DNA from: an uncultured Eubacteriales bacterium
Lineage (GTDB): Bacteria > Bacillota > Clostridia > Christensenellales > Aristaeellaceae
NCBI GenBank assembly: GCA_902777335.1
Contig: CACYTF010000008.1
Span: 378-64,377, forward strand
DNA: 64,000 bases
Reading direction: 5' to 3'
A program made the position numbers and the translations under genes. The notes under the pieces were generated by a model, which was not told the DNA's origin, did no database searches, and worked only from the letters and a program-made list of their open reading frames with translations. Positions 8,833 to 61,661 of the stretch are shown piece by piece (position 1 is the stretch's first letter; the number at the start of each line of letters is the position of its first letter).

Positions 8833-8865
8833 ATATATCCCATCGCGGAGACTTGTGGCTTGGAG

Positions 8866-11398: not shown

Positions 11399-11402
11399 GG
11401 TT

Positions 11403-12194: not shown

Positions 12195-12269
12195 GGAAAC
12201 CCATATGATTCATATATTCCATTATACGTCATTTCATGCCCGAGGGCAAGACACATCGCGCAAAACTAA

Positions 12270-12330
12270 CCAAAATCGGGGGGACGGTTCTCTGTGTCAA
12301 TGACACAGAGAACCGTCCCTATGATTTTGG
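12270..12330. repeat. REP family A, 61-bp perfect palindrome
   Basis: CCAAAATCGGGGGGACGGTTCTCTGTGTCAATGACACAGAGAACCGTCCCTATGATTTTGG. Confidence 0.9.
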
Positions 12331-12385
12331 TTTGAAATCTGAGCCAAAACGTGCTATAGTCATATCAGTACGATGAGAGGGGTGC

Positions 12386-13492
12386 ATGACGATGAAGAAG
12401 CTGCTGGCGCTGTTGTTTGCGCTGTGCCTGGGCCTGACGGGCTTTGTCCTGGCGGAGGAGCCGCCGCTGGGCCCGGGCTGGAACCTGGGCAACACCTTCG
12501 ACGCCTACCTGGACGGGCAGAATATCGACCCGATGGATCTGGAGACCCTGTGGGTGGGCGCGCGCACCACCGAGGAAGACGTGGCAGCGGTGGCCAACGC
12601 GGGCTTTGAGGTGTTCCGGCTGCCGGTGTCCTGGCATGACCACGTGTCCGGCGACGATTTCGCCATCGACCCGGCGTGGATGGACCGCGTGCAGGAGGTG
12701 GCCGACTGGGTGCTGGCGCGCGGCATGACGCTGATCCTGAACTCCCACCACGACATCGACAAGCGCTTCTTCTACCCGGATTCGGAGCACTACGACCAGT
12801 CCGAGCGCTACCTGACCGCCATCTGGACGCAGATCTGCGAGCGCTTCGGCGGCTACGACGATAAGGTGATCTTTGAGTTCATGAACGAGCCGCGGCTGAA
12901 GGACACGGCCATGGAGTGGGCCTTCGCCGAGCATACGCCGGCCTGCGTGGACGCCGCCGACTGCATCGGCAGGCTCACGCAGCGCTGCGTCGACGTGGTG
13001 CGCGCCTCCGGCGGCAACAACGCCGATCGCTGGCTGTTGGTCACCCCCTACGCCGCCAGCCCCTACTCGGTGCAGACCGACCACTTCCGGCTGCCCAACG
13101 ACCCCGCCGGCCGCCTGATCGTGTCCGTGCACACCTACACGCCCTACGCCTTCACGCTGAAGCCGAACGGCGTGCGCCGGTTCGACCCCACGAAGGCGTA
13201 TCAGGTCAACGAGATCGGCAAGGTGCTGGACATCATGTGCGACAGGTTCGTCAATCAGGGCATACCGGTGTACATCGGCGAGTTCGGCTGCGTCGACCGC
13301 GACAATCTGGAGGACCGCGTGGCCTACATGCGGTACTTCTGCGCCGCCGCCAGGGCGCGCGGCATCTACATGTGCGTGTGGGACAACAACATGTACAAGC
13401 AGGGCAACGAGTGGTTCGGCCTTCTGAACCGCGCCACCGCCGAATGGTACTACCCCGAGATCGTGCAGGCCATGATCGAAGCCAGTAAATAA
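12386..13492 (+). CDS. Secreted glycoside hydrolase family 5 (cellulase family)
   Basis: Signal peptide MTMKKLLALLFALCLGLTGFVLA. GWNLGNTFD, FRLPVSWH, NSHHD, FEFMNEP (acid/base Glu) and IGEFG (nucleophile Glu) are GH5 motifs. Confidence 0.85.
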   Translation: MTMKKLLALLFALCLGLTGFVLAEEPPLGPGWNLGNTFDAYLDGQNIDPMDLETLWVGARTTEEDVAAVANAGFEVFRLPVSWHDHVSGDDFAIDPAWMDRVQEVADWVLARGMTLILNSHHDIDKRFFYPDSEHYDQSERYLTAIWTQICERFGGYDDKVIFEFMNEPRLKDTAMEWAFAEHTPACVDAADCIGRLTQRCVDVVRASGGNNADRWLLVTPYAASPYSVQTDHFRLPNDPAGRLIVSVHTYTPYAFTLKPNGVRRFDPTKAYQVNEIGKVLDIMCDRFVNQGIPVYIGEFGCVDRDNLEDRVAYMRYFCAAARARGIYMCVWDNNMYKQGNEWFGLLNRATAEWYYPEIVQAMIEASK

Positions 13493-13575
13493 GGCGCACG
13501 GGAAAATCAGGGGGAGGTGGCTCGCTTTATGCGATCAGACGAACCCCCGGGATCACCCTGCCAACCCTCTCAGTG

Positions 13576-14295
13576 TCAATCCCCTATGCTCGTCAGATTG
13601 CCCTCCTCGTCATAGTGACCCCGCCAATACTGGTATCCTTCGTCGTCATAATCATATTTCAGGTAGATCTGATACTCCGACAGCGCCTTGTTGTATTGCA
13701 TGCTGTACTCAACGTTGTGTTCATCCACGTCCATGACCGTTTTTGTGCTTACGCTTTCCCATTGGACCTCATACGCATTCGCCGCCTCGGCGTCGCTGTT
13801 TACGATCCTGCAATAGAGCTTGTAACCGTTGGACGCGTATATCTCCACCTCATAGCGGTTCACTTCATCCGTCAGCCGGAGTTCCTCCCCAAGCGCCAGC
13901 AAAGCGCCCCCTTCGGAATCTGAAAACGTCAGGTCGACGGCCTGCAGGTCTTCATATTGCCCTGTGCTGCCCAGGGCGAGCTCTCCGCTTTCCAGATCGA
14001 ATCCCATGTCCGGGACGGCGACGCTCCCGCCCTCCAACAAGCCGAGGATCGTGCCCAGGCCGTCCCACTGATCGGATACCCGCTTGAGATCGCGCCAATC
14101 ATACCTGTCGTTCAACGGCTCCAGGGAATCCGGAAGGCCGCCGGTGGGCTCGGTCAGCGACTCCAGCAGCTCCGCGTCATCGACTGCCTGCCTCATGGTG
14201 TCCAAATCGGTGTGGGCGTCGGCCAGGGCGGACGCGGCGGACAGCGCCAGCAGCGCCGCCAGCATCAGGATCATCCATCGCTTCACGGGTTTCAT
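13576..14295 (-). CDS. Hypothetical secreted protein
   Basis: 239-aa ORF with signal peptide (MKPV)KRWMILMLAALLALSAASALADA. No recognisable domain. The start may be the GTG three codons in (better RBS spacing). Confidence 0.55.
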   Translation of the reverse strand: MKPVKRWMILMLAALLALSAASALADAHTDLDTMRQAVDDAELLESLTEPTGGLPDSLEPLNDRYDWRDLKRVSDQWDGLGTILGLLEGGSVAVPDMGFDLESGELALGSTGQYEDLQAVDLTFSDSEGGALLALGEELRLTDEVNRYEVEIYASNGYKLYCRIVNSDAEAANAYEVQWESVSTKTVMDVDEHNVEYSMQYNKALSEYQIYLKYDYDDEGYQYWRGHYDEEGNLTSIGD

Positions 14296-14453
14296 CCTCC
14301 TTCGATACGCGGACCGGCGACGCGGTCCAACCGGCCATTACGGCTGTGAATGAATGTGTTTTCAGTATAATGGCTTTGCATTGGAAAAGCCACGCCTTCA
14401 AGCCACGCAACATAATTTTTACATAACAGCAACGCCCGCTGCCGACGTACAAC

Positions 14454-14491
14454 AAAACCGCCCTCCACCCACGCAGGGGGAAGGCGGTTTT
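14454..14491 (-). terminator. Rho-independent terminator after rplQ (A-tract/T-tract on both sides)
   Basis: AAAACCGCCCTCCACCCACGCAGGGGGAAGGCGGTTTT: about 10-bp GC stem flanked by A and T runs, 13 nt after the rplQ stop. Confidence 0.7.
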
Positions 14492-14503
14492 CAATGCGTC
14501 CGA

Positions 14504-15013
14504 TCAGATGAACTCCAGGATCACCATCTCGGCGGCGTCGCCGCGACGGGGGCCCTTCTTGACGATGCGGGTGTAGCCGCCGCCCTGGCCCTTCTCAGCG
14601 GCGCGCTTCTTGTACTTGGGCGCGATCTCGCGGAACAGCTTCTCGACGACCTGATGCTTGACGTCCTTCTGGCGCTTCTTGAAATCGTCCTTGTCCTCGC
14701 CCTCGTTCTGGACGGCGGGGATGTCGTACAGGTAGCGCATGATCTGACGACGGGCAGCCAGGCGGGCAGGCGCGTCGTTGGTGACGGTCAGCTCCTCCAC
14801 CTGCTTCTTGTCGTTCATGTGCTTCTTGGTAACTTCGACGGTATTGTCGCACTGACGCATGGCGATGGTCACTAAATGCTCAGCCAGCGACTGAACTTCC
14901 TTGCCGCGCGCCAGAGTGGTTTCGATTTTGCCGTACCAGATCAGGTTGGTCACCTGATTGCGAAGCATCGCCATTCTCTGGTCGGTCGGCCGGCCCAGCT
15001 TGCGATTGGCCAT
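14504..15013 (-). CDS. rplQ: 50S ribosomal protein L17 (long form, internal insertion)
   Basis: [39 protein letters not shown] ... [25 protein letters not shown]. Last gene of the alpha operon. Confidence 0.95.
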
Positions 15014-15056
15014 TTCTGGTTCCTCCCTTGATGCTTTATCGGTAAATGCCCGGGGG

Positions 15057-16028
15057 TTATTCCTCGCTGGTCTTAAGGCTCAGGCCCAGAGCGATCAGCT
15101 TCTGTTCCACCTCTTCCAGCGACTTCTTGCCCAGGTTGCGCACCTTCATCATGTCCTCCTGATTGCGCTGCACCAGCTCCGCAACGGTGTTGATGCCGGC
15201 GCGCTTCAGGCAGTTGAACGCGCGGACGGAGAGGTCCAGCTCTTCGATGGTCATCTCCAGAACCTTGCTCTTGTCGTCGATTTCAGGTTCGTTGTAATCG
15301 ACGCGGACGACGTTCACCGTCAGGTCGATGAACAGGCGCATGTTGTTGGTCAGTATCTGCGCGGCGGAAGCCAGGGCTTCCTTGGGCAGTATGCTGCCGT
15401 TGGTCCATACCTCGATGGTCAGTTTGTCATAGTCGGTGACCTGGCCCACGCGGGTGTCCTCGACGGAATAGCTGACCTTGCGGATGGGGGTGAATATGCT
15501 GTCGACCGGAATCACGCCGATGGGCATGCCGGTGACCTTGTTGCGCTCCTGAGCGAGCTGCTTGTTCCGCTCCGCGGAGACATAGCCCCGGCCCTTTTCG
15601 AGGGTGATCTGGCACTGCAGGTGGCCGCCCTCGGAGAGCGTCGCGATGTGCAGATCGGGGTTGACGATCTCGACCTCGTCGTCGGCCTTGATGTCGCCCG
15701 CCTTGATCTCGCAGGGACCGTGCGCATCGATGGTGATGGTCTTGGGTTGCTCCGTGAAGAGTTTCGCAGAGAGAAGCTTGATGTTCAGGATCAGTTCCGC
15801 AACGTCTTCCTTCATGCCAGGAACGGTCGAAAACTCATGCTGGACGCCCTCGATCCGGACGCTCGTCGCCGCCACGCCGGGCAGTGAGTTCAGCAGCACG
15901 CGGCGCAGAGAGTTGCCCAGAGTCTGGCCGAAGCCGCGCTCCAAAGGGTTGACGACAAACTTGCCGTAGCGATTGTTCTCGCCGACTTCCACACGTTCAA
16001 TTTTGGGCTTTTCGATTTGATCGATCAC
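15057..16028 (-). CDS. rpoA: DNA-directed RNA polymerase alpha subunit
   Basis: [52 protein letters not shown]-terminal domain [19 protein letters not shown]. Confidence 0.97.
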
Positions 16029-16155
16029 TCAGCGTTTCCTCCTCTCCTTGTCGCAGCCCGGAAAAACCGGGTTGCGGTGCTGGCCCCGCGCCGCGCAAAG
16101 CCGTTTCGTAGCGCGCTATGCGGCCGCAGGGCGATTGACTGTTTCCAGACAGCAA

Positions 16156-16752
16156 TTAGCGGGAGTACAGCTCGACGATCAGGTTCTCGGAAACCTCATA
16201 GTCAATATCTTCGCGGCTGGGCATCGCGGCGATCTTGCCCTCAAAGGCATCCGCCTGCTTCTCGATCCACTGAGGCACGGTCTTCTTGCCGTATTCCTCC
16301 AGCAGCGCCTTGAACTTCTCGGAGGCCTGGCTCTTCTGGCACACGGCGACCACGTCGCCGGGCTTGACCATGGCGGAGGGGATGTCGCAGCGGCGGCCGT
16401 TCACGGTGAAGTGGCCGTGGTTCACCAGCTGGCGCGCCTCGCGGCGGGTGCTGGCAAAGCCCATGCGGAACACAACGTTGTCCAGGCGGCGCTCCAGGTA
16501 CTGGAGCAGGATCTCGCCGGTGATGCCGCGCTTGCGCTCGGCCATTTCATAGTAATGATGGAACTGCTTTTCCAGCACGCCGTAGATGAACTTCACCTTC
16601 TGCTTTTCCATCAGCTGCTTGCCGTATTCAGACTGCTTGCGACGCATCTGGGGCTTGGGGTTGCGTTTGGTCTCCTTGGAGTAACCAAGCACCGCAGGAG
16701 ACAGACCCAGCGCCTTGCATCTTTTCAGAACGGGCTGTGTATTCTTAGCCAT
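16156..16752 (-). CDS. rpsD: 30S ribosomal protein S4
   Basis: MAKNTQPVLKRCKALGLSP...YGKQLMEKQKVKFIYGVLEKQF...RLDNVVFRMGFA. Confidence 0.96.
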   Translation of the reverse strand: MAKNTQPVLKRCKALGLSPAVLGYSKETKRNPKPQMRRKQSEYGKQLMEKQKVKFIYGVLEKQFHHYYEMAERKRGITGEILLQYLERRLDNVVFRMGFASTRREARQLVNHGHFTVNGRRCDIPSAMVKPGDVVAVCQKSQASEKFKALLEEYGKKTVPQWIEKQADAFEGKIAAMPSREDIDYEVSENLIVELYSR

Positions 16753-16770
16753 GTCGGTTTCTCCTCTCGA

Positions 16771-17169
16771 TTACACTCTTCTGCGCTTGGGCGGGCGGCA
16801 TCCGTTGTGGGGGATGGGCGTCACGTCCTTGATCATGTTCACTTCCAGACCCGCGGCCTGCAGCGAACGGATGGCGGCTTCACGCCCGGAGCCGGGACCC
16901 TTGACATAGACCTCGACGGTCTTCAGGCCATACTCCATGGCGGCCTTCGCGGCGGTCTCGGCGGCGCTCTGCGCGGCGAAGGGCGTGGACTTCTTGCTGC
17001 CGCGGAAGCCAAGCCCGCCAGCGGAAGCCCAGCTCAGCGCGTTGCCGGCGGTATCCGTGATCGTCACGATGGTATTGTTGAAAGAAGAGCGAATATGGGC
17101 CGCGCCGCGCTCCACGAGCTTCTTCTCGCGGCGTTTGCGGGTAACCCTTTTCAGCTTCGGCTTTGCCAT
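16771..17169 (-). CDS. rpsK: 30S ribosomal protein S11
   Basis: Start at [17 protein letters not shown] (GGGAGG RBS). [44 protein letters not shown]. Confidence 0.96.
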
Positions 17170-17204
17170 AGCGTTTATTCCTCCCAATAATCAAGCAATT
17201 GTTA

Positions 17205-17576
17205 TTACTTCTTCTTCTTACCGGCAGCCTGCTTCTTCGGGCCCTTGCGGGTACGGGCATTCTGCTTGGTATTCTGTCCGCGCACGGGAAGACCGCGGCG
17301 ATGCCGCAGACCGCGATAGCAGCCGATCTCCATCAGGCGCTTGATGTTCATGGAAACTTCGCGACGCAGGTCGCCCTCTACCTTGACGTTGTGGTCAATG
17401 TAGTCGCGCAGCTTGCCGATATCATCCTCGGTCAGGTCCTTGACGCGGGTGTCGGGGTTGACGCCCGTGGCCTCGATGATGTCGTCGGCGATGTTGCGGC
17501 CAATGCCGTAGATGTACGTCAGGGCGATCTCAATGCGTTTCTCCCTGGGAAGGTCGACACCAGCAATTCGTGCCAT
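17205..17576 (-). CDS. rpsM: 30S ribosomal protein S13
   Basis: Start at [30 protein letters not shown]...[27 protein letters not shown]. Confidence 0.96.
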
Positions 17577-17811
17577 GTGTTGTTTGCACCTCCAAATAAC
17601 TTCTATGCTGTGCTTGGAACCGGCGATATTGCCCTTACATAGATTGGGCAGCATCAGCACCGCCCTTCGGCGGCGCCGGGGACCCTTGCGGGCCCTCGCC
17701 CGGGTTTGCGCGTCTGGCGTAACGCCCAAAGCCCTGTGTTTATATGAAGGAATCCCGGAAAACGCGCGGGTCAGGCGCGTCAGCCGCTCCGAAATTCCGT
17801 CAGACCAAATG

Positions 17812-17820
17812 ATTATACCA
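17812..17820 (-). promoter_or_regulatory. Candidate extended -10 (TGGTATAAT) promoter upstream of rpsM
   Basis: Minus strand reads ...gataattgTGgTATAATcatttgg about 240 nt upstream of the rpsM ATG. The -35 is weak. Confidence 0.35.
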
Positions 17821-17948
17821 CAATTATCGCTGCGCCGCTAACATCTTTTATGCAACAATTGTTAAATCTTACATCAAGTTCTGTTATTTCTTGGATTTTG
17901 GCGGATCTGCGCAGGAAAAGTATACAAAATGAAGGAAAACCTTCATCT

Positions 17949-18009
17949 CCAAAATCAGGGGGACGGTTCTCTGTGTCAGTGACACAGAGAACCGTCCCTG
18001 TGATTTTGG
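17949..18009. repeat. REP family A, 61-bp perfect palindrome
   Basis: CCAAAATCAGGGGGACGGTTCTCTGTGTCAGTGACACAGAGAACCGTCCCTGTGATTTTGG, ending 1 nt before the DUF218 gene stop codon. Confidence 0.9.
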
Positions 18010-18010
18010 C

Positions 18011-18883
18011 CTACGGCAAATCCACCGCGCCCTCCGGCACGCCCAGCATGGAGGCCAGCTGGCGGATCGCGAAGCAGTCGTCTGCGGCGTATCTGGACGG
18101 AGGTTGGATCGGAAAGCTGTAGTTGGCCACGATGCGGGCGGAGTAGCCCCAGCTCAGATCGCACAGCGTGGACATGGCGTTGTACAGCACCTGGCTCCAG
18201 CGCTGGTGGTAGGCGGAGGTGACGATGGTCATCGTGTCGACGCCCTGGGCCCGCATGATTGCGAAGGTATTCACCGCGTTCTGCAGCGTGGTCATGGCGT
18301 TCTCGTCGATGCATATCCTGTCCGGGGCGATGCCACAAATTTCCGTCAGGTAGGCCTTCATCATGCCCGCCTCGGTGTGGCCCTCGGGGTTGTTGTCGCC
18401 GGTGGCCCCGCCGGAGCAGACCAGTATCGCTTCCGGGTAGGACCGCGCCGCGGCGGCGGCCGCCGCGCAACGGCCCTTCAATTCGTCGGTCATCTCGCCG
18501 TTCTTCAGCTCAAAGCCCAGCACCACGAAGGCGTGGCGCTCGCCGATCGCCGGGTTCGCCGCCTCCAGCGCCGCCGCGCGCTCGCCGCCGTCGTACAGAT
18601 ACATCGGGTAGTCCGGATCCAGGTAGACGGCCTTCCAATGGTCCACGATGGAGCGGGCGACGGTCAGGTCGGTGGCGCTGATCGAGCCGATGGCCTCCAG
18701 CACCCAGTCGAAATAGGCTTCGTCGCCGTCGGACGGCCGCTCGTAGGCCGACAGCAGCGCCGACAGCAGCACGCCGAAGTTGACCCGGTTGTTTTCGTCG
18801 ACGCGGTAGTAATCCTCCGCCGACGCGCCGGCGGCGCACAGCAGCGCCAGCGCAACGAAAAGCGCCGCGAGCCTTCGCATCAT
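18011..18883 (-). CDS. YdcF/ElyC-family (DUF218) secreted protein
   Basis: Start at MMRRLAALFVALALLCAAGASA (signal peptide). HAFVVLGFEL...ILVCSGGATG...HTEAGMMKAYL...IDENAMTTLQNA...IVTSAYHQRWS matches the DUF218 pattern. Confidence 0.8.
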   Translation of the reverse strand: MMRRLAALFVALALLCAAGASAEDYYRVDENNRVNFGVLLSALLSAYERPSDGDEAYFDWVLEAIGSISATDLTVARSIVDHWKAVYLDPDYPMYLYDGGERAAALEAANPAIGERHAFVVLGFELKNGEMTDELKGRCAAAAAAARSYPEAILVCSGGATGDNNPEGHTEAGMMKAYLTEICGIAPDRICIDENAMTTLQNAVNTFAIMRAQGVDTMTIVTSAYHQRWSQVLYNAMSTLCDLSWGYSARIVANYSFPIQPPSRYAADDCFAIRQLASMLGVPEGAVDLP

Positions 18884-19695
18884 GATACCGTCTCCTCTCC
18901 CGACCCGTCCGGCAGAGCATCGTCCCCCCGAAGGGCCCGCCCCGCCTTCGCCATGCGCCGGGCGCGGCAGAAGCTGAGCCCGGTCAGGCGGGCGATCTGT
19001 CGGATGGAAGCGCCGCGCCGGGCCAGCGTCCGCACGCCCTCGCGCTGTTTTTCGTCCTCCAGGTTCAGATAGTCCGCCGGGGCGTCGCAGCCGGTGCACC
19101 GCTTCATCACCGCCACCGCCTTCCGGTCGGACAGCCGCGGCTCGGCGTATTCCAATTCGTCCATGCAGCGGTCGTCCTCGCCGCGCCTGTGGAATTCGAC
19201 GAATTCCTCGCGGCCGATCATGCCCAATACAAATCCTGTGTCCGTCAGCCCGCCCCCGTCGACATAGTCGGCATAGCTGCTGTAGGGATAGTCCGCGGGG
19301 GCTGCGCAGAGGCCGGCCTTGACCGGATTGCGGTGGATGTACCGCAGCGCGGTCAGCAGGTAAGCATCGTCGTGGATGGCTTCGCTCTTGTACCGGTCCT
19401 GGAAGAGGTGCCCCACCCGGTCGTACTTCAGGTTGTACCAGTACACATAGCTCGCGCCGAGCCGCCTGAACGCCGTGGCCAGGGGCTCGCCGCCCTCCCG
19501 GATCAGCAGGTGGACGTGGTTTGGCATCAGGCAGTACGCGAACAGCTCAAAGCCGCACGCCAGCTTGTACCGCTCCAGCGTCTGCAAAAAGCGCGCATAA
19601 TCCTCCTCGTCGCAGAATATCTTCTGCCGGTTGATGCCCCTGAACATGACGTGATAGGTTCCCGATTCGCTCCGCTCTCTGGCACCTCTTGGCAT
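18880..19695 (-). CDS. RAYT-type (IS200-like Y1/HUH) transposase homologue with C-terminal HTH extension
   Basis: MPRGARERSESGTYHVMFRGINRQKIF...CLMPNHVHLLI (HUH)...GHLFQDRYKSEAI...LRYIHRNPVKAGL (Tyr box). C-terminus ...ASIRQIARLTGLS (HTH). Flanked by REP-A palindromes. Stop overlaps the next start (ATGA). Confidence 0.85.
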   Translation of the reverse strand: MPRGARERSESGTYHVMFRGINRQKIFCDEEDYARFLQTLERYKLACGFELFAYCLMPNHVHLLIREGGEPLATAFRRLGASYVYWYNLKYDRVGHLFQDRYKSEAIHDDAYLLTALRYIHRNPVKAGLCAAPADYPYSSYADYVDGGGLTDTGFVLGMIGREEFVEFHRRGEDDRCMDELEYAEPRLSDRKAVAVMKRCTGCDAPADYLNLEDEKQREGVRTLARRGASIRQIARLTGLSFCRARRMAKAGRALRGDDALPDGSGEETVS

Positions 19696-19748
19696 AACAT
19701 CGCCCCCTTAATACTGAGTATACCCGGCGATGGGCGGCGTGTCAATCC

Positions 19749-19809
19749 CCAAAATCAAGGGGACGGTTCTCTGTGTCATTGACACAGAGAACCGTCCCCT
19801 TGATTTTGG
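19749..19809. repeat. REP family A, 61-bp perfect palindrome
   Basis: CCAAAATCAAGGGGACGGTTCTCTGTGTCATTGACACAGAGAACCGTCCCCTTGATTTTGG, between the RAYT start and the MerR stop. Confidence 0.9.
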
Positions 19810-19816
19810 CCGGGGA

Positions 19817-20803
19817 TCATTTCGCCTTCGGCTTCACCGGGATCAGCAGGTCGAGCTGCGCCGTTTGGGGCTCGCCCTTTTGGGTCCGGCGGACGTGGTC
19901 GTGGTAGTTCAGGTGCTCCTCCAGCGCTCCGAACATGTCGTCCGGGTCGCCGCTGCCGTTGTATTCGTATTCGTCGCTCTCGCGCACCCATCTGTCCAGC
20001 CACTCCCACTCCTGGAAGTTGCCCATCTGGATCATGTGCGCGGCGTAGGTGCCGCCCGGAAAGTGCTTCTTCTCCAGCGGCGGCGGCACCTCGACGCCCT
20101 CCGGCAGCGTGATCCAGAACTCATAGCCGTGCCACCCCGACTCATCCGACGGGCTGGGATGGTTGAAGCCGTACAGCCGCAGCCCGGGGTGCTTCTCCCA
20201 CAGCCGCGTCACGCGCACGAAATCCGAGATCATGTCGCCCGCCCGTTCCTCCGGGTCGTCGCCCACCACGTGGGCCGCGGCGACATCGCTTGCGGGCAGA
20301 TACACGATGCGCACATCCTTCATCGCCTGCCAGCCCTGCTGGCCCTGCTCCAGTTTCTCCATGATGCTTCGCCTCTCCTCCTTAATCAGCGTGGAAGCGG
20401 GTGAAAGGGCGTCGGCCAGGGCCATCAGCCGCTCGTCCTGAAGCAGCGCCTCCCCCGCGGGCAGCGCGCGCCGCTGCTTCAGCGCCTCCAGGAACGCCGC
20501 GATCACGTCCCGGACCGCGCGAAGGGCCTTGAACTCCTCGTCCAGCTGGGCCAGGTTCCGCTCCAGCACCCGCACGGCGGCGGCGGGGCCGGGGTCGGAC
20601 AGTATCTCCCCGATCTCCTTCAGCGACAGCCGCAGCTTGCGCAGCGTCAGGATCTGGCGCAGGCGCAGGATGTCCTCCGGGCCGTACACCCGATAGGCAT
20701 AGCCCTCCCTGCGGTCGCTTCGCATCAGGCCCTGCTTCTCGTAGTGGCGCAGCATCCGCGCGGAGACGCCGTACATCCTGGACACCTCGACGACGGTCAG
20801 CAT
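19817..20803 (-). CDS. MerR-family transcriptional regulator with GyrI-like effector-binding domain
   Basis: Start at MLTVVEVSRMYGVSARMLRHYEKQGLMRSDRREGYAYRVYGPEDILRLRQILTLRKLRLSLKEI (MerR HTH). The C-terminal half resembles the GyrI/SbmC-like fold (...FPGGTYAAHM...). The upstream part of the 421-aa track ORF runs through REP copies. Confidence 0.85.
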   Translation of the reverse strand: MLTVVEVSRMYGVSARMLRHYEKQGLMRSDRREGYAYRVYGPEDILRLRQILTLRKLRLSLKEIGEILSDPGPAAAVRVLERNLAQLDEEFKALRAVRDVIAAFLEALKQRRALPAGEALLQDERLMALADALSPASTLIKEERRSIMEKLEQGQQGWQAMKDVRIVYLPASDVAAAHVVGDDPEERAGDMISDFVRVTRLWEKHPGLRLYGFNHPSPSDESGWHGYEFWITLPEGVEVPPPLEKKHFPGGTYAAHMIQMGNFQEWEWLDRWVRESDEYEYNGSGDPDDMFGALEEHLNYHDHVRRTQKGEPQTAQLDLLIPVKPKAK

Positions 20804-20880
20804 GTCCTCCACTCCTACCGCCCCCTTCCTTCCGCTCCAGTATAAACCGCGACACTGTGTCCGTGTCAAGCCCCCTTCCA

Positions 20881-20976
20881 CCAAAATCACAGGGACGGTT
20901 CTCTGTGTCATTGACACAGAGAACCGTCCCTGTGATTTTGGCCGAGTGACACAGAGAACCGTCCCCCTGATTTTGG
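20881..20976. repeat. REP family A: one 61-bp palindrome (20881-20941) plus a half copy (20946-20976)
   Basis: CCAAAATCACAGGGACGGTTCTCTGTGTCATTGACACAGAGAACCGTCCCTGTGATTTTGG ccga GTGACACAGAGAACCGTCCCCCTGATTTTGG. Confidence 0.9.
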
Positions 20977-21032
20977 CCGGACAAAGCGAAGGCGGGGGAA
21001 CTCGCGTTCCCCCGCCGTTCATTGGGGTTGGA

Positions 21033-34355: not shown

Positions 34356-34384
34356 CCTGTCAACAGGACCGTCCCGGTGACAGG
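34356..34384. repeat. REP family B, single unit
   Basis: CCTGTCAACAGGACCGTCCCGGTGACAGG (7-bp stem CCTGTCA/TGACAGG), about 60 nt downstream of the Big_2 gene stop. Confidence 0.85.
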
Positions 34385-36858: not shown

Positions 36859-36919
36859 CCTGTCACGGGGACGGTCCTGTTGTCAGAAAAACCTGACAAC
36901 AGGACCGTCCCCGTGACAG
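36859..36919. repeat. REP family B, inverted pair of units
   Basis: CCTGTCACGGGGACGGTCCTGTTGTCAG aaaaa CCTGACAACAGGACCGTCCCCGTGACAG, 12 nt downstream of the RAYT-2 stop. Confidence 0.9.
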
Positions 36920-36931
36920 CTTTTTCCCGCC

Positions 36932-37672
36932 TCAGGCATCCTGTATGACCCCGCGGTTGATGCCCGTCAGCCGCTCGATCTGCCTGACCGTCAGGCCGCG
37001 CGCCTTGAGCCATCGCAGGGCCGCGTCGCGTTCCTTCTTATTGAATTCCTGCAGCTGGGTGCCGCTGGTCAGCTTGTAGGTGTCGCAGATCAGTTTGCGC
37101 GCCTGGTCGTCGTGAATCCACTGCTTGTCCCGAATGTCCAGGCAGTTTTCCTCGCGCTCCCGCCGCATCCAGTCCGCGAAGCACTTCGGGCCCCCGATCA
37201 TCTCCAGCACGGGCGCGTTGTCGATGCCCTCCCCCGGCGACAGATACTCGCCGTAGCTGCTCCAGCGGTAATCCTCGGCCTTCGCGACGCCCGCCTTCTC
37301 CGGATTGCGGTGAATGTAGCGGACGACCGTCAGCAGGTACTCGTCGCTGTCCACCGCCTCGCTCATATACCGGTCCTGAAACAGGTGCCCGAACCGATCG
37401 TACTTGCGGTTGTAGTAGATGGCGTAGCTCCCGGCGATCTTCTTCATGATCAGGTCGAGCTGATCGCGCGCATCGTGGATCAGCAGGTGGACGTGGTTGT
37501 CCATCAGGCACCAGGCCACCAGATCAAAGCACAGCTCCTGACGGTACCTCAGCACCGTCGAAAGGAACCGCTCGTCGTCCTGCGCGTCTTCAAACAGGAT
37601 CTGCCTGCCGATGCCGCGCAGTATCACGTGGTAGTATCCGCTCTCGCACTTCTGACGCGCTGTTCTGGGCAT
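36932..37672 (-). CDS. RAYT-type (IS200-like Y1/HUH) transposase homologue with C-terminal HTH (second paralogue)
   Basis: Start at MPRTARQKCESGYYHVILRGIGRQILF...CLMDNHVHLLI (HUH)...GHLFQDRYMSEAV...VRYIHRNPEKAGV (Tyr box)...LTVRQIERLTGIN (HTH). RBS AGGGGG. Flanked on both sides by REP-B. The upstream part of the 307-aa track ORF runs through REP-B. Confidence 0.85.
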   Translation of the reverse strand: MPRTARQKCESGYYHVILRGIGRQILFEDAQDDERFLSTVLRYRQELCFDLVAWCLMDNHVHLLIHDARDQLDLIMKKIAGSYAIYYNRKYDRFGHLFQDRYMSEAVDSDEYLLTVVRYIHRNPEKAGVAKAEDYRWSSYGEYLSPGEGIDNAPVLEMIGGPKCFADWMRREREENCLDIRDKQWIHDDQARKLICDTYKLTSGTQLQEFNKKERDAALRWLKARGLTVRQIERLTGINRGVIQDA

Positions 37673-37720
37673 AAAATCATTCCCCCTTTCTTGAAATTCA
37701 GTATAGCATCGGTGGAAAAA

Positions 37721-37782
37721 GTTGTCAACAGGACCGTCCCGGTGACAGGAAAACCTGACAACAGGACCGTCCCGGTGACAGG
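37721..37782. repeat. REP family B, two direct units
   Basis: GTTGTCAACAGGACCGTCCCGGTGACAGG aaaa CCTGACAACAGGACCGTCCCGGTGACAGG, 48 nt upstream of the RAYT-2 start. Confidence 0.9.
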
Positions 37783-37853
37783 ATTTCATCTTCGGTTTAC
37801 AATGGCCCCGTATAATGCTATAATAAAAGTAGTCTACAGCCCGGGAGGCGCGC

Positions 37854-40800
37854 ATGTTTTCCAGATACAGCGTGAAAAAGCCCTACACCGTCATCGTGGG
37901 CGTCATACTGGTGATCGTGCTCGGGGTCATCTCCTTTCAGAAGATGACCACCGATCTGCTGCCCAGCATGGACCTGCCCTACGTGGTGGTGTTCACCAGC
38001 TATGTGGGGGCCACGCCTGAGCAGGTGGAGTCGGAGATCACCCGCCCGATGGAGGCCGCCTTCGCCACGCTGACGGACATGAAGAAGATCACCTCCTCCT
38101 CCCGGGACAATGTGTCCGTGGTGACGATGCAGTTCAACGACGGCGCGAACATGGACACCGCCCTGATCGAGATCTCGTCGCGGCTGGACCAGCTGCGGGG
38201 CGGCTGGGGCGACGAGATCGGCGCGCCGGTGACCATGAAGCTGAACCCGGATATGCTGCCGGTGGCGATACTCTCCGTCACCCGGGACGACATGGACATA
38301 CTCGCCCTGTCGGACTATGTGGAGGACAAGCTGGTCCCCGCCTTTGAATCGCTGAACGGCGTGGCCTCGGCCAGCGCCTCGGGCGTGATCCAGCAGCGCG
38401 TGGACATCACCATCGAGCAGAGCCGCATCGACGTGCTGAACAGCGCCATATTGGAGGACATCGACGCCGAGCTGGCCGAGGTCGAGCGCCAGCTGAACGA
38501 CGCCCAGGCCCAGCTCTCCGACGGCAAGAACGCCCTGGCCCGGGCGAAGCGGCAGGCCCTGAAGCAGATCGACGACGCCCTCGCGGCCATCGACCAGGGC
38601 AGCGGCCAGATCGCCCCGGCCATCGAGCAGCTGACCGCGCAGCGGGACCAGCTGATCGCCCAGCGGGACCAGGCGGAGGCCGCCCTCCAGGCGCTGGAGG
38701 GCCTGATGGGCATGGACGACACCCAGCGCGGCGCGCTCCTGATGATGCAGCAGGGCCTGGAGCTGCTGAAGGACCGGCTGACGGCCCTCGAGGCGCAGCT
38801 GGCCCGGGGCACGGACGCCGGCGACGCCGACGCTGACGCCCTGCGCGAACAGCTGATCGCCCAGCGGGACGCGCTGGCGAACCAGCTGGAGCAGCAGCGC
38901 GCCTACCTGAGCGACCTGGGGCTCATCAGCCCCGACGCGCTGCAGAAGGAGATCGACCGCCTGACCTCTGGCATCAAGGACAATGAGGGCGCGCTGGCCG
39001 ACGCCCGGGCGGAGCTTCAGCAATTGCAGGCCCAGCGCGACGCCGCCCAGGCCGCCATCGACGATCTCACCCGCCGCATCGCCGAGGCCGAAACCACCGC
39101 CGCACCATCAGAGAACGAGGCGCCGGCGGGGACGGAGGTGCCGGCTGTTACCGACGCGCCGGTGGAGACGGAGGCGCCTGCGGATGGGGAGACGACCTCT
39201 TCAGTCTCGCCTGACGGCGAGCCAGCTTCCCCTGAAGGGGAAGCCTCAGGAGAACCCCAAGAGCCTTCCCCCGTTGGGGAAGGTGCCGAGCGTAGCGAGG
39301 CGGAAGAGGTCTCCACTCCCGCTGAGCCTACGGACAAATCCTCTGAGGAGGAGACGACCTCTTCAGTCTCGCCTGACGGCGAGCCAGCTTCCCCTGAAGG
39401 GGAAGCCTCAGGAGAACCCCAAGAGCCTTCCCCTTCAGGGGAAGGTGGCAGCGCGCAAGCGCTGACGGAAGAGGTCTCCACTCCCGCTGAGCCTACGGAC
39501 AAATCCTCTGAGGAGGAGACGACCTCTTCAGTCTCGCCTGGCGGCGAGCCAGCTTCCCCTGAAGGGGAAGCCTCAGGAGACCCCGCTGACACGACCCAAG
39601 AACCCTCCCCAGATGGGAAGGCTGAAGACCCCGCCGACGCCACCCAAAAGCCTTCCCCCGTTGGGGAAGGTGCCGAGCGCAGCGAGGCGGAAGAGGTCTC
39701 CGCTCCCGCTGAAACGACGGCAGATACGACCGCGGATGAGGTCTCCCCTCCCGCCGAGCCAAAACTCGAAGCCCCCGCGGACGATGTCCCCTTGTCCGCC
39801 GAACCCACCGCCTCCCCCGATCCCGCCGACACATCCGAACCTTCCCCCGAACCCACCCTCGAACCCGAGGGCATGGCGCGGCGGCCCTTTGGCATGGCGG
39901 CCATGGCGGAGGAGGACGACGTGGAGGCGATGCGGGCGCAGCTGGACGAGGCGCGAAAGAACCTGGCCAGGCTGGCGGCGGACATCGCCGAGCAGTCGGA
40001 GCTGGTGGACGCGCTGGCCGCCGCCCTGGACGTGGACCGGGACACCCTCGAAAAGCGCCTGGCGGAGCTGGCGGCGCTGGGCGAGGACGAGGACGTGCGG
40101 AGCCGCTCCGAGGAGGCCCAGCGCGTCATCGACATGCTGGCCGAGCGCATCGTGAAGCTGGACGAGGAGCTGCGGCAGATCGACGCCGACAACGCGCCCG
40201 ATGCCCTGCGCCAGGCCATCGCGGTGCTCCGGGAGCAGATCAGCGACATCGAGGCCAGCGACGCCTACCAGGCCATGGCGCTGCTGAAGGACCCCGACGC
40301 CCTGAAGGCCCAGTATACCCAGGTCAAGGACGGCGTGGCGCAGCTGAACGACGGCATCGCCCAGATCGACGCGACGCTGGAGAAGCTGAACAAGGGCGTC
40401 ATTCCCGGCGGTTTCATCGACGGCATCGACGAGGACACCAACCTGGCGGACGCCCGCAGCGCCCTCACCGCCGCCCGCGCCAAGGCCGTCAGCGGCTTTG
40501 CCGACGCCGCCGCCCAGATCAGCGCGGGCGAGGCGGAGCTCAACAAGGCCCGCAAGGAATTCAACGACAAGCGCGAGGAGGCCCTCGAAAACGCCGGGCT
40601 GGACGGCGTGATCACCGTGCAGATGGTCTCCGGCCTGATCGGCGCGCAGAACTTCGCCATGCCCGCGGGCTACGTGTACGACGCAGACAGCGAGCAGGTG
40701 CTGGTGCGCGTGGGCGACAAGTTCGACAGCCTGGACGCGCTGCGGCGGATGAAGCTGTTCCACCTGGGGCTGGATTCCATACAGGACGTGCGCCTGCTGG

Positions 40801-43371: not shown

Positions 43372-43386
43372 AATACGTATGCATTT

Positions 43387-43481
43387 CCTGACACCGGGAC
43401 GGTCCTGTTGTCAGGAAAAGCTGACAACAGGACCGTCCCCGTGACAGGAAAAGTTGTCAGTAGGACCGTCCCCGTGACAGG
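43387..43481. repeat. REP family B, three units (one inverted plus two direct)
   Basis: CCTGACACCGGGACGGTCCTGTTGTCAGG aaaag CTGACAACAGGACCGTCCCCGTGACAGG aaaa GTTGTCAGTAGGACCGTCCCCGTGACAGG. Lies in the convergent spacer between the RND and caspase genes. Confidence 0.9.
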
Positions 43482-45650: not shown

Positions 45651-45935
45651 GTGCCTCCCCATCCGCAGATGGGGAGGGGGACCGCTTGCGGTGGTGGGGG
45701 ACCTGAACGTATCGTCGTGCGCGGCGTTTCGTTCGGAGTGCCCTATCCCCCGCTTCGCGGGTACTTCCCCGTTGCGACGGGGAAGCTATCTGTGCCTCCC
45801 CGCCGCAGCGGGGAGGGGGACCGCTTGCGGGGGTGGGGGACCTGTACGTATCGTCGTGCGCGGCGTTTCGTTCGGAGTGCCCTATCCCCCGCTTCGCGGG
45901 TACTTCCCCATCTGCGGATGGGGAAGCTATTCACC
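45651..45935. repeat. Two tandem copies of a 141-bp hairpin-rich unit
   Basis: GTGCCTCCCC(atccgcagat/gccgcagc)GGGGAGGGGGACCGCTTGCGG...GTATCGTCGTGCGCGGCGTTTCGTTCGGAGTGCCCTATCCCCCGCTTCGCGGGTACTTCCCC...GGGGAAGCTAT. The unit starts recur at 45651 and 45792. Confidence 0.85.
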
Positions 45936-46098
45936 ACGGCGATTCGTTCTCCTGAATCGAACAAATCCCGTCATAGCAGTCGCGCCACTGCGCCTTCGCG
46001 CAGGCGCGACCAGCCCGCGCGCATCCTGTGGATGCCAGCGCGGCGCTGCCGCCGACCCGCTTCGCGTGGGCGGCGGTGCGTAAAGGGATTTGCACCGC

Positions 46099-46134
46099 AA
46101 TTCCTCATTCCTAATTCCTCATTCCTCATTCCCC
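46099..46134. repeat. Heptanucleotide array ATTCCTC x about 5
   Basis: AATTCCTCATTCCTAATTCCTCATTCCTCATTCCCC. Complement of the GAGGAAT array at 61228-61262. Confidence 0.85.
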
Positions 46135-55265: not shown

Positions 55266-55678
55266 GCTGCCGCGCGGTGGGCGCGCATGTGCGCTAACTT
55301 CGAATTCCGTGCTATCCCCCTTGCCTCGCCCCCCGTGAGGGGAAGAGGTGCCCGCAGGGCGGAGAGGGGGCTCCCCTGCCTACCGCGCAAGACGAACCAG
55401 AAGACCCCTCTCAGGCGCTTCGCGCCAGCTCTCCCCGTCACCGGGGCGAGCCAAGGCTACCGCGCGGTACGCTGACCTCAAACTCCGCACTATCCCGTTA
55501 CCGGGGCGAGCCAAGGCTGCCGCGCGGTGCGCTGACCTCAAACTCCGCACTATCCCGTCACCGGGGCGAGCCAAGGCTACCGCGCGGTGCGCTGACCTCG
55601 AACCTTGCGCTTATCCGCCTTGCCTCGCCCCCGTGAGGGGGAGAGGTGCCCGCAGGGCGGAGAGGGGTCCTCTCCCCC
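55266..55678. repeat. Family C tandem array, reverse-complement orientation relative to 8866-9436
   Basis: CCCCCTTGCCTCGCCCCCCGTGAGGGGAAGAGGTGCCCGCAGGGCGGAGAGGGGG (X, rc), present twice. Three units of CACCGGGGCGAGCCAAGGCTRCCGCGCGGTRCGCTGACCTCAAACTCCGCACTATCCCGT. Confidence 0.85.
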
Positions 55679-56139: not shown

Positions 56140-57567
56140 ATGGACTACGCCAAACTGGACAGGCTCGTCGATTCCTACAGGGACGAGCTGATCGAGAACA
56201 TCCGCAAGTGGATCGCCATTCCCTCGGTGCAGGGCGCGCCGGCGGGCGAGAACGCGCCGTTCGGCAAAGAGGTGCGCCGGATGCTGGACACGGCCCTGGA
56301 GGACGGGGCGCGCTTCGGCTTTCAGGTGCGGGACATCGACGGGTACGCCGGCGACATCAGCTACGGCGAGGGCGATCAGACCATGGGCATGCTGGCCCAC
56401 CTGGACGTGGTGCCCATCGGCGACGGCTGGAAGCACGACCCGCTGGGCGGCGAGATCGAGAACGGCCGGATGTACGGCCGCGGCACCACCGACGACAAGG
56501 GCCCGGCGCTGTGCGCGCTGTACGCCATGCGCGCGGTGAAGGAGGCCGGCATACCGCTGAAGCACGGCGTGCGGCTGATTCTGGGCTGCGACGAGGAGAC
56601 GGGCATGTCCGACATGCGCTACTACGCCTCGAAGCTGAAGATGCCCGACTACGGCTTCTCCCCGGACGCCGAGTTCCCGGTGATCAACATCGAGAAGGGC
56701 GGCGTGAACCTGCGGCTGTCGAAGGTCACCGGCGGCGAGGATGGCGCGGACATACCGGTGTACCGCCTGTACGCGGGCGAGCGGCCCAACGTGGTGCCCG
56801 CCGAGGCCACGGCCCTGGTAGGGCTGAACGGCCTGACCCTTGATGCGCTGAACGAAAAGCTGGCCGCCATCGCGGCGGGCCACGACCGGTTCAACCTGAA
56901 GGCCGACGACGCCGGCGAGGGCCGGGCGAAGATCACGGCCACCGGCGTGAACGCCCACGCGGCCATGCCCGAGGGCGGCGTGAACGCGGCGGGCATGCTG
57001 CTGATCGCGCTGAAGGAACTGGGCGCGGGCGGCGGCAGCCGCGAGGCCATCGCCATGACGGCGGACGCCGTGGGCATGGAGTACACCGGCCGGTCGCTGG
57101 GCATCGCCTGCGCGGACGAGCTGTCCGGCGCGCTGACCTGCAACCTGGGCATACTTCGCTACGACGGCAACGAGTTCTCTGCGCTCTTGGACATCCGCTA
57201 CCCGATCTGCGGCGACGAGGAGCGCATGCTGGGCCAGGCGGCCAAGCGCGTGGCCCCGGCGGGCATGTCGGTGTGCTGCGCCTCAAGCCACACCCCGCTG
57301 CACGTGCCCGCCGAGAGCCGCATCGTGCAGGGGCTTTTGAAGGTGTACCACGAGGTCACCGGCCTGGACGCCTACACCATCGCCATCGGCGGCGGCACCT
57401 ATTCCCGCATGATGCCCAACACCGTGGCCTTCGGCGTGTGCTTCCCCGGCGACATGGACGTGTGCCACATCGCCGACGAGTACATCGACGTCAACAAGAT
57501 GATGCTGGGCGTGAAGATCTTCGCCCACGCCATCGCCGAACTCGCCGGAGGCAGCGAAGAACCCTGA
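56140..57567 (+). CDS. pepV: M20-family dipeptidase (PepV/Sapep type)
   Basis: Start MDYAKLDRLVDSYRDELIENIRKWIAIPSV (AGGAGG RBS). ...MLAHLDVVP..., GRGTTDDKGP, ...LGCDEETG... are M20 metal ligand motifs. Confidence 0.85.
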   Translation: MDYAKLDRLVDSYRDELIENIRKWIAIPSVQGAPAGENAPFGKEVRRMLDTALEDGARFGFQVRDIDGYAGDISYGEGDQTMGMLAHLDVVPIGDGWKHDPLGGEIENGRMYGRGTTDDKGPALCALYAMRAVKEAGIPLKHGVRLILGCDEETGMSDMRYYASKLKMPDYGFSPDAEFPVINIEKGGVNLRLSKVTGGEDGADIPVYRLYAGERPNVVPAEATALVGLNGLTLDALNEKLAAIAAGHDRFNLKADDAGEGRAKITATGVNAHAAMPEGGVNAAGMLLIALKELGAGGGSREAIAMTADAVGMEYTGRSLGIACADELSGALTCNLGILRYDGNEFSALLDIRYPICGDEERMLGQAAKRVAPAGMSVCCASSHTPLHVPAESRIVQGLLKVYHEVTGLDAYTIAIGGGTYSRMMPNTVAFGVCFPGDMDVCHIADEYIDVNKMMLGVKIFAHAIAELAGGSEEP

Positions 57568-57699
57568 CCCCTGTTCCCTGTTCCCTGCTCCCTGTTCCCT
57601 GTTCCCTGTTCCCTGCTCCCTGTTCCCTGTTCCCTGTTCCCTGTTCCCTGTTCCCTGTTCCCTGTTCCCTGTTCTCTGTTCCCCTACTCCCTACTCCCT
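57568..57699. repeat. Longest heptanucleotide array: about 16 x CCCTGTT (two CCCTGCT variants) plus 2-3 x CCCTACT
   Basis: Read directly. Starts 1 nt after the pepV stop and ends 20 nt before the cmk ATG. Confidence 0.9.
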
Positions 57700-61206: not shown

Positions 61207-61227
61207 TCGTGGAGGAAGAGGCGGATG

Positions 61228-61262
61228 GAAATGAGGAATGAGGAATGAGGAATGAGGAATTG
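61228..61262. repeat. Heptanucleotide array GAGGAAT x about 4
   Basis: GAAATGAGGAATGAGGAATGAGGAATGAGGAATTG. Confidence 0.85.
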
Positions 61263-61305
61263 TGGTACAAATCCCATCCGGGATTTGTTGGATTCAAGGG
61301 AGAAC

Positions 61306-61562: not shown

Positions 61563-61661
61563 GGTCCCCGTTGGCGCATCAAAGTGAGATAAGGAACCGT
61601 CCCTCATCTCACATTCACCCCTCACTCGACTGAGATAAGGGACGGTTCCTTGTCTCACTTT
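61445..61661. repeat. REP-like variant (family E): AAAGTGAGATAAGGAACCGTCCC / GGGACGGTTCCTTGTCTCACTTT inverted pair plus a hybrid half-site
   Basis: Arms at 61581-61603 and 61639-61661 (1 mismatch). Related half-site AAAGTGAGTCAGTAGGAACCTGTCCCCGGTGAC at 61445-61477. Shares the GGGACGGT core with families A and B. Confidence 0.75.

Follow-up and report, generated by a model that had tools for sequence, protein, structure and literature searches.

The subject of this study is gene B, a Y1 (HUH) tyrosine nuclease-transposase gene, together with the short hairpin repeats (family B) that bracket it. Both lie in a 64,000-nt stretch of contig CACYTF010000008.1 from an uncultured Eubacteriales bacterium, and this whole stretch is referred to here as the window. 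A first-pass annotation of the window had labelled gene B as a second REP-associated tyrosine transposase (RAYT), flanked by its own family of repetitive extragenic palindromes (REPs). The gene, its predicted promoter and the family-B repeats are arranged as follows.

36932..37672, minus strand: Y1/HUH tyrosine nuclease-transposase gene B, 246 aa
37721..37749, minus strand: upstream proximal B unit, reading TGTCACC-GGGACGGTCC-TGTTGACA on the minus strand and pointing at gene B
37754..37782, minus strand: distal B unit of the upstream pair, directly repeating the proximal one at 33-nt spacing
37700..37728, minus strand: predicted sigma-70 promoter of gene B (TTGACA, 17 nt, TG-TATACT)
36859-36886 plus 36892-36919, unstranded: downstream convergent B dimer with an AAAAA linker
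34356..34384, minus strand: solitary B unit between the stop codon of a Big_2-repeat gene and the promoter region of the S10 operon
43383..43481, unstranded: three-unit B cluster, a convergent dimer plus one direct copy

Family-B units at four intergenic sites

The window was searched with the family-B 24-mer of the first-pass annotation, allowing up to 3 mismatches, and 100 dinucleotide-preserving shuffles served as the control. Eight matches were found in the window, compared with 0.00 in the shuffles. Five of them lie at 34361-34384 (+), 36859-36882 (-), 36897-36920 (+), 37726-37749 (+) and 37759-37782 (+), and the remaining three form the 43.4-kb cluster at 43387-43410 (-), 43425-43448 (+) and 43458-43481 (+). 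Each copy carries 0-2 mismatches, the copy at 43458 being the most diverged. The search recovered eight units at exactly the four places that had been reported, and the reported spacings were also right: the inverted pair lies 11-12 nt past the stop codon of gene B, and the nearer direct unit lies 48 nt from its start codon.

All four clusters are intergenic, lying between open reading frames (ORFs), and the three-unit cluster sits between the converging ends of an efflux gene and a 678-aa ORF. The downstream dimer is predicted to fold into a 27-28-bp hairpin (-36.5 kcal/mol, z = -13.6), and the 43.4-kb cluster folds at -36.8 kcal/mol (z = -10.3). No Rfam family matched anywhere across the window. 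Reading the B units as transcription terminators was considered and found unsupported; a simple terminator scan was negative, and relative to the local genes the T-runs lie on the wrong strand.

Protein B has a TnpA_REP-like core and an added C-terminal tail

Gene B starts at an ATG preceded by AGGGGG, a good ribosome-binding site. The ORF at 36932-37672 (minus strand) was found as annotated, with both of the peptides quoted for it (CLMDNHVHLLI and VRYIHRNPEKAG), and its product was matched in addition by the Pfam domain Y1_Tnp (6e-16). Protein B consists of an N-terminal TnpA_REP-like core of ~145 aa and a C-terminal five-helix tail of ~70 aa. When a profile built from 20 homologues was searched against the PDB, Escherichia coli TnpA_REP (PDB 4ER8) ranked first (E 2e-5), and IS200-type chains had E >= 0.1; a single-sequence phmmer search of protein B against the PDB gave noise only. 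The AlphaFold (AF2) model of protein B had a pLDDT of 87.6. Its top Foldseek match was again 4er8_A (E 1.9e-7, TMt 0.76), followed by the IS200, ISDra2 and IS608 transposases (HUH/Y1 fold, E about 1e-5). Against the NCBIfam profile NF033573 transpos_IS200, protein B scored 18.1 bits (cut-off 55). By the NCBIfam, PDB-profile and Foldseek comparisons alike, the catalytic core of protein B is nearer to TnpA_REP than to the TnpA of IS200. Residues H60 and H62 (the HUH motif), Y119, N123 and P124 are invariant among the 20 homologues, and the last three constitute the class-2 'Y---NP' signature.

The tail (residues 175-246) is conserved and predicted to form five helices, with a final part reading ...GL(S/T)VRQIERLTGINRGV... 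In Pfam scans, the tail of protein B matched HTH_28 marginally (E 0.048), and HTH_38, HTH_5 and HTH_23 each matched 5 of the 20 homologues scanned (best E 9.5e-6); Bac_DnaA_C matched neither the tail nor the homologues. The tail is probably a helix-turn-helix (HTH). A profile search of the C-terminal domain against the PDB returned spurious protein-A matches. Given these spurious matches and a non-significant Foldseek result, a DnaA-like identity is not claimed for the tail, which is a generic HTH at best.

The units flank the gene in a fixed orientation

Relative to gene B, the units in the window are laid out as → → gene → ←. In Clostridia bacterium RGIG6928, a metagenome-assembled genome (MAG) of a sister species from sheep rumen, the orthologue (91% identity) has the layout → → gene → ← → ←. 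Orientation across the family was then examined, with a strict core, in a census of 80 metagenome loci holding relatives 40-70% identical. The upstream core was forward in 41 of 74 loci and reverse in 3; the downstream core was reverse in 32 of 67 loci and forward in 4; and both orientations occurred together in 25 of the 61 loci with both flanks available. The flanking arrangement, on which the earlier reading of the locus leaned, is conserved in relatives that keep the gene. Inverted family-B dimers were convergent (→ ←) in 14 of 14 cases, with an A or T linker of 4-6 nt, and additional B copies are direct repeats at 33-nt spacing. The layout of a gene-less dimer is that of the gene's own termini minus the gene.

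The proximal unit carries part of the predicted gene B promoter

A consensus scan placed the predicted promoter 28 nt upstream of the gene B start codon, with 11 of 12 consensus matches and an extended -10 box. Its -35 hexamer coincides with the 3' stem arm of the proximal unit, and in L016, L019 and L022, three loci of relatives, the -35 box likewise lies in the proximal unit. The proximal core begins 59-77 nt before the start codon in 32 of 47 relatives. With a putative promoter scored as a -35-like hexamer (<=1 mismatch) that begins within ~30 nt of the core and is spaced 16-18 nt from a TAnnnT, a unit-linked candidate was found in 34 of the 47 relatives having a proximal unit, the hexamer lying mostly 2-7 nt after the core. 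At gene A, a paralogue in the same window, the -35 box is just beyond the edge of the unit. Because the -35 box of gene B is a stem arm of the proximal unit, binding of protein B there should repress its own transcription.

A differently placed copy was also observed. At L023 (9955-10770), and also at L024, a 57%-identical homologue is third in an apparent operon, the first two genes being one with a ParB_N domain and a 177-aa ORF. Upstream of the L023 homologue, the core starts 40 nt from the start codon and the hairpin ends only ~18 nt from it, so this copy does not have the promoter-in-repeat layout.

Two paralogous gene-repeat pairs in one window

The window holds further genes and repeats of the same kind:

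18880..19695, minus strand: paralogous Y1-HTH gene A, 271 aa, 43% identical to B
12266..20980, unstranded: all nine family-A units of the window, as dimers plus one single
12266-12332, 17945-18011, 19745-19811 and 20877-20943: family-A dimers
20947-20980: single family-A unit
61583-61612 and 61631-61659, unstranded: two hairpin units of a third family, C, with loop GGGACGGTTC and stem GAGATAAG/CTTATCTC

Proteins A and B are 43% identical across 242 aa (E 7e-66); the paralogy proposed by the first-pass annotation is borne out, and its estimate of very roughly half identical was slightly high. Paralogue A scored 83.5 bits against NCBIfam NF047646 REP_Tyr_transpos, over the cut-off of 80. A tblastn search of the window for Y1 genes gave two matches, A and B, with no third and no identical copies. 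Family A occurs only at 12.3-21.0 kb, around gene A, and family B only at 34.4-43.5 kb, around gene B, so that each family lies within about 7 kb of its own gene. The window does contain two gene-plus-repeat pairs, as had been claimed: diverged Y1 paralogues A and B, each with its own flanking family.

The family-A units have the loop GGGACGGTTC and arms AAAATCA.. / ..TCTGTGTCA, unlike the arms of family B. A family-C unit reads GTGAGATAAG-GAACCGTCCC-TCATCTCAC and is accompanied by a partner unit; the two face each other, with a polarity opposite to that of the A and B dimers, and tblastn found no cognate Y1 gene for family C (61583-61659) within the window.

A conserved loop is carried on variable stems

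Alignment of 47 family-B copies from the window and the sister-species MAG showed that, on the strand with the core GGGACGG, a unit reads TGTCAC(C/G)-GGGACGGTCC-TGTTG(A/T)CA and is 27-29 nt long. Its stem is 7 bp with one mismatch and encloses an 11-nt loop region. The window contains 19 GGGACGGYYC cores, compared with about 2 expected, and these 19 are the nine units of family A, the eight of family B and the two of family C. The loop GGGACGGTYC is common to families A, B and C and to relatives down to 39% identity and from 34 to 64% GC, whereas the stems differ. The description of A and B as different families therefore holds for their stems; they are not unrelated, as both carry GGGACGGTYC, and judged by their sequences they are one design, with a common 10-nt loop on different stems.

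Stem variation was equally evident near other homologues. The unit of L019 (64%-identical homologue) reads TGTCAAG-GGGACGGTTCT-CTTGACA, that of L023 reads GTGTGTCAG-...-CTGACACAC and that of L021 (52%-identical homologue) reads ACAGG-...-CCTGT; further stems near homologues are GAGTCA/TGACTC, AACACA/TGTGTT, AAGACA/TGTCTT and GTGCCA/TGGCAC. Complementarity of the arms was assessed in 178 units from 55 loci by permuting arms between units. The contiguous stem averaged 5.7 bp, compared with 3.2 bp after permutation, and none of 200 permutations reached as high a value. The 178 units carry 84 distinct arm sequences, and the loop GGGACGGTTC is essentially fixed. Protein identity correlates with arm identity (rho 0.34; 0 of 2000 permutations as high).

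A Collinsella homologue (31% identity) has no core, so the loop rule stops short of Actinomycetota. Left-end and right-end subtypes (CACC or CACG before the core) followed no consistent pattern in family B, and a literature search for the core sequence returned eukaryotic primer sequences only.

Some close relatives lack the gene and its units

Ten related contigs were obtained by an exact-protein look-up of ribosomal protein S10; their S10 protein is identical to that of the window, and their S10 operon DNA is 84-91% identical to it. On L120, L123, L124 and L126, the divergent efflux gene still lies beside the S10 operon, as in the window. The interval between them contains a toxin-antitoxin pair, a 304-aa ORF or a shorter Big_2 protein, and neither a Y1 gene nor any unit. 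None of the ten contigs has a unit upstream of rpsJ; there, homology to the window ends about 20 nt before the position of the unit is reached. Toward the efflux gene, homology to the relatives fades between the 5' untranslated region and the outermost unit. The same look-up with the 678-aa ORF beside the 43.4-kb cluster gave no match, hence no empty-site comparison there. In one relative, L125, the efflux homologue is inverted with respect to the S10 operon.

Three contigs of the same species (L002, L003 and L004), obtained from other samples and with an identical protein B, lack exactly one 33-nt unit-plus-linker on the upstream side of the gene (window 37754-37786), the indel being clean. 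The same three contigs terminate right at the downstream dimer, which is consistent with assemblies breaking at the repeat.

The units appear to be dispersed regionally

Dispersal was followed in the window, in the sister-species MAG RGIG6928 and in one complete replicon. An exact family-B 20-mer was found on nine RGIG6928 contigs, which carry at least 38 B units in about 17 clusters; one of the nine is syntenic with the window, and the other eight are without homology to it. Family-B units accordingly exist beyond the four loci of the window; a genome-wide, REP-like spread of family B is not demonstrated. On one of the contigs, an A-type dimer and a B cluster are about 1 kb apart. As to whether the two families are ever interleaved, which the first-pass annotation had raised, they are interspersed at the kilobase scale and never mixed within one cluster. 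RGIG6928 also has two further stem families, and one of its contigs has a third Y1 paralogue (L018, 5599-5859) with 67-69% nucleotide identity to A and B; the same contig has B units as well, together with a unit from another stem family, GATGACAGTG-GGGACGGTTC-TCGCTGTCATC. Isolated 20-mer matches in four other MAGs (L006, L008, L010, L013 and L014) resemble chance or a related core and were left unused.

The complete replicon is that of Acetoanaerobium noterae DSL2 (NZ_CP154629.1, 2.63 Mb, 34% G+C; loci L105, L106 and L114), which is labelled a plasmid, yet begins at a dnaA-like gene. A tblastn search placed one homologue in it (39% identity), flanked by units of the form AATCAxxA-GGGACGGTTC-TTTTTGATT. 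A 49-nt A. noterae unit had 29 BLAST places in the replicon. All 27 strict armed cores fall within 341,965-423,185, an 81-kb stretch that ends at the gene and lies on the origin-proximal side of this single Y1-HTH gene. No core was found in 90 kb to the left and 120 kb to the right of the stretch (about 210 kb), and no core with arms in six 50-kb samples elsewhere. Forward units resemble the upstream end of the gene and most reverse units its downstream end; a left-end/right-end subtype pattern is visible in A. noterae. Several forward/reverse pairs lie 70-170 nt apart, like gene-less mini-copies in the master orientation. In this one complete genome, these data suggest that the spread is regional, one-sided and co-oriented.

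Other features of the window

The neighbours of gene B are an efflux pump ORF and a Big_2 protein, as identified by Pfam on the corresponding genes. The efflux-pump ORF (37854-43334, 1826 aa) has a long internal insert that is repetitive and rich in Pro, Glu, Ser and Ala (DNA repeats at 39139-39720), and the gene is bracketed by mutually inverted B units (37723-37783 and 43386-43446, 79% complementary). Arrays of ~60-nt tandem units (GGGGCGAGCCAAGGCTACCGCGCGG...) occur at 8862-9406 and 55290-55667, 46 kb from each other; the two are mutually inverted, with arms of up to 154 nt and 87% complementarity, and are unrelated to families A and B. CCCTGTT heptamer arrays, GGAATGA-type inverted arrays and a 98%-identical 100-nt direct repeat are also present; the coordinates of these further simple and dispersed repeats are 57534-57697 and 10437-10509, 46085-46133 and 61227-61275, and 45671-45909. 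The genes parB and parA (soj) are at 10496-12194, 7 kb from gene A, and from their position the window may be near a replication origin; GC skew across the window is too flat to indicate replication direction or origin proximity.

Discussion

Most descriptions of RAYT/REP and TIRtron systems come from Proteobacteria and from a few other phyla, and a gene bracketed by its own hairpin repeats is a kind of selfish or semi-domesticated DNA known from other bacteria. We favor, at a probability of roughly 0.55, the reading that gene B and its units are a TIRtron-type element, that is, a Y1 (HUH) nuclease/transposase plus hairpin units, with gene-less dimers that would be mobilized in trans. Protein B would act on single-stranded DNA as a Y1 (HUH) nuclease/transposase and would carry an extra HTH at its C terminus. 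Its cognate DNA would be the 27-29-nt hairpin, in which a lineage-specific stem (TGTCAC./.TTGWCA in family B) displays the conserved loop GGGACGGTCC. The position of gene B between inward-pointing hairpins (→ → gene → ←) would represent the 'TIRtron' layout, and the gene-less → ← dimers and small arrays would be non-autonomous derivatives of it, copied or moved in trans by the protein, mostly over short distances. By analogy with IS200/IS605 and E. coli TnpA_REP, the protein would act by recognizing and cleaving the hairpin on single-stranded DNA. The terminal hairpin that doubles as a -35 box would lead to self-repression through promoter occlusion. Catalysis, mobility in trans and autoregulation of gene B are predictions of this model, as is stem-based specificity between the paralogues, to which the correlation between protein and arm identity (rho 0.34) points.

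Several observations weigh against this reading. Protein B scored 66.9 bits against the equivalog NF047646 REP_Tyr_transpos, under the cut-off of 80. Foldseek of the C-terminal tail gave nothing at E <= 0.001, the best matches being ParB/KorB-type HTH domains at E > 1. Lone B units form weak hairpins (z = -0.5 to -2.8), and it is equally possible that the HTH recognizes the unit in double-stranded form. The correlation between protein and arms may reflect shared ancestry alone. Where the 'insertion' begins and ends is not sharply defined, as its junctions fall in diverged intergenic DNA, and no precise junction or target duplication is claimed. The 33-nt indel in the same-species contigs may have its origin in strain polymorphism, in replication slippage, or in a collapse or artefact of assembly, and the regional confinement of the units could have arisen by local recombination or gene conversion rather than by transposition. 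That protein B cuts or moves the units is a proposal from sequence and structure comparison.

There are two serious rivals, a domesticated REP-like system and an HTH regulon. The stronger, although unlikely in our judgment, is a domesticated, vertically kept system resembling the Group 2/3 RAYT-REPIN systems, in which the gene is immobile and the host uses the hairpins, for instance as promoter modules, mRNA 3' stabilizers or architectural sites, while the protein does no more than maintain or occasionally duplicate them. Several features are as such a system would have them: the gene occurs once, or as paralogues that have diverged (43% identity), and not as identical copies, every unit is intergenic, many units have a built-in consensus -35 box, and few homologues are found on plasmids (24 of 72,556 records) or in phages (1 of 50,697). 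However, close relatives with the same neighbours are without the gene and the units, gene neighbourhoods differ among 64-70%-identical homologues, and the A. noterae units crowd one side of the gene rather than lying among genes that they might serve. The units were also unflagged by the simple terminator scan.

Clearly less probable is a transcription-factor regulon, in which the HTH would bind a double-stranded GGGACGGTYC box, the Y1 domain would be vestigial, and the operators would have spread by ordinary duplication. Such a regulon would explain why conservation is concentrated in the central box and not in the stem, why that box overlaps the -35 region at a fixed spacing from the start codon (-59 to -77 at 32 of 47 loci), and why lone hairpins are weak. 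It is harder to reconcile with the invariance of the HUH motif, the catalytic Tyr and Y---NP in 20 diverged homologues, which favors a working active site, or with complementary arms that co-vary (84 variants) as those of a hairpin would; moreover, convergent dimers and arrays between converging gene ends are not operator-like, and the HTH assignment is weak for protein B (E 0.05). The reading of the repeat as a product of chance or base composition, functionally unconnected with the gene, has only the high G+C of the window (64%) in its favor and is already refuted by the 0 matches in 100 shuffles and by the same core, in fixed orientation, flanking homologous genes in dozens of unrelated contigs and a homologue in a 34%-GC genome.

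Beyond the TIRtron-type reading of this one locus, we tentatively propose, with rather less confidence than we place in that reading, a coherent and so far undescribed Clostridia-wide Y1-HTH class characterized by hairpins with an invariant 10-nt loop (GGGACGGTYC) on fast-evolving stems, by coexisting families that are distinguished only by their stems and each paired with a paralogous protein, by local, one-sided and co-oriented spread, and by a self-repressing master gene whose -35 box belongs to the terminal hairpin. If true, such a class would offer a tractable system for specificity and short-range transposition in HUH enzymes. Four testable rules emerge from comparing the family, namely a conserved loop on variable stems, convergent flanking units, a promoter in the terminal repeat, and copies clustered beside the gene. 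These rules could guide biochemistry of hairpin choice by HUH nucleases and help with the annotation of 'transposase' genes of this family, of which gut and rumen metagenomes contain thousands, and the repeats may explain assembly breaks at such loci. Uncultured rumen Clostridia carry two families per genome, and probably three or more.

Comparison with known systems

Of the known systems, and placed by published descriptions, gene B and its units best fit the class of TIRYT genes (tyrosine transposases associated with terminal inverted repeats, TIRs) and TIRtrons, which is equated with TnpA_Y1 subclass 2.1. This placement was preferred to classical RAYT/REP because the NCBIfam score is below the cut-off, the repeats are untagged and the protein has a C-terminal helical/HTH tail. 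In the available text of the original report, TIRYT/TIRtrons are RAYT-like genes flanked by inverted repeats sharing GGGGWSAS; some TIR families are moderately abundant, as dimers or clusters, some TIRs contain self-complementary tracts, and one genome may hold several gene/repeat pairs (Di Nocera, De Gregorio & Rocco 2013, PMC3733652). The likeness to gene B lies in a Y1 gene longer than classical RAYTs and in inverted flanking repeats with a G-rich motif. That motif here is GGGGACGG, or CGGGACGG in some B copies, and GGGGACGG fits GGGGWSAS at 7 of 8 positions, the comparison being with the published consensus only. The differences are that the available text of PMC3733652 mentions neither Clostridia nor Firmicutes, contains no description of hairpins with a conserved 10-nt loop and co-varying stems, and does not report a promoter in the repeat or a regional, one-sided spread.

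TnpA_Y1 class 2 has the Y---NP signature of RAYT-like proteins, and its subclass 2.1 comprises long proteins with a C-terminal HTH-like extension (Bac_DnaA_C/HTH_23/HTH_28-like), reportedly without REP-like hairpins nearby (Quentin et al. 2018, PMC6006769). Protein B resembles that subclass in its Y---NP, its length and C-terminal extension, its low copy number and the diverged paralogues per genome. It differs in that hairpin repeats flank the gene and recur nearby and in that Bac_DnaA_C is unmatched. If true, the Clostridia-wide class proposed above would contradict the published view of the HTH-bearing subclass 2.1 as lacking REP-like hairpins.

To the E. coli RAYT (TnpA_REP, 4ER8) the catalytic core has its best structural and profile match. 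The E. coli REPs and bacterial interspersed mosaic elements are also similar in arrangement, with inverted cognate hairpins bracketing a single-copy gene and repeats occurring as singles, inverted pairs and intergenic clusters. However, classical REPs are 20-40-nt palindromes with a 5' GT[AG]G tag, whereas the unit here is a ~27-nt imperfect palindrome from which the tag is absent, which argues against RAYT/REP membership proper; and the conserved element is the loop (the central GGGACGGTYC), not the stem and foot. Gene B further differs from the E. coli RAYT in its extra C-terminal domain, the far lower copy number of its repeats and their regional rather than genome-wide distribution. Of the original label of RAYT with REPs, the part that concerns the core fold is retained; the sub-cut-off NCBIfam score, the absent tag and the extra C-terminal tail speak against the remainder.

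With the REPIN-RAYT systems of Pseudomonas (Bertels & Rainey), the locus shares a recurring inverted dimer that forms a long hairpin and RAYT paralogues that each have their own family; here, however, the families have one loop sequence in common and the spread appears local. The 'Group 1' RAYT cluster extends to Clostridia, with flanking 16-mers in only about 12 copies (Bertels et al. 2017, PMC5581495). The IS200/IS605 elements (IS608, ISDra2) are similar in the HUH/Y1 fold and likely hairpin recognition, and the A. noterae gene-less mini-copies keep the orientation of the master copy. They differ in that the IS200 score of protein B is 18.1 bits against a cut-off of 55, that identical gene copies are absent here, and that their left-end and right-end hairpins are in direct orientation whereas the terminal hairpins here are inverted. 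With respect to tnpB, the adjoining ORFs are the efflux pump and the Big_2 protein, and no search aimed at tnpB was made. The element is of a known type, new in detail and not in kind; what appears to be new is its Clostridia host range, the hairpin with a conserved loop and variable stem, the promoter in the repeat, and the regional, one-sided spread.

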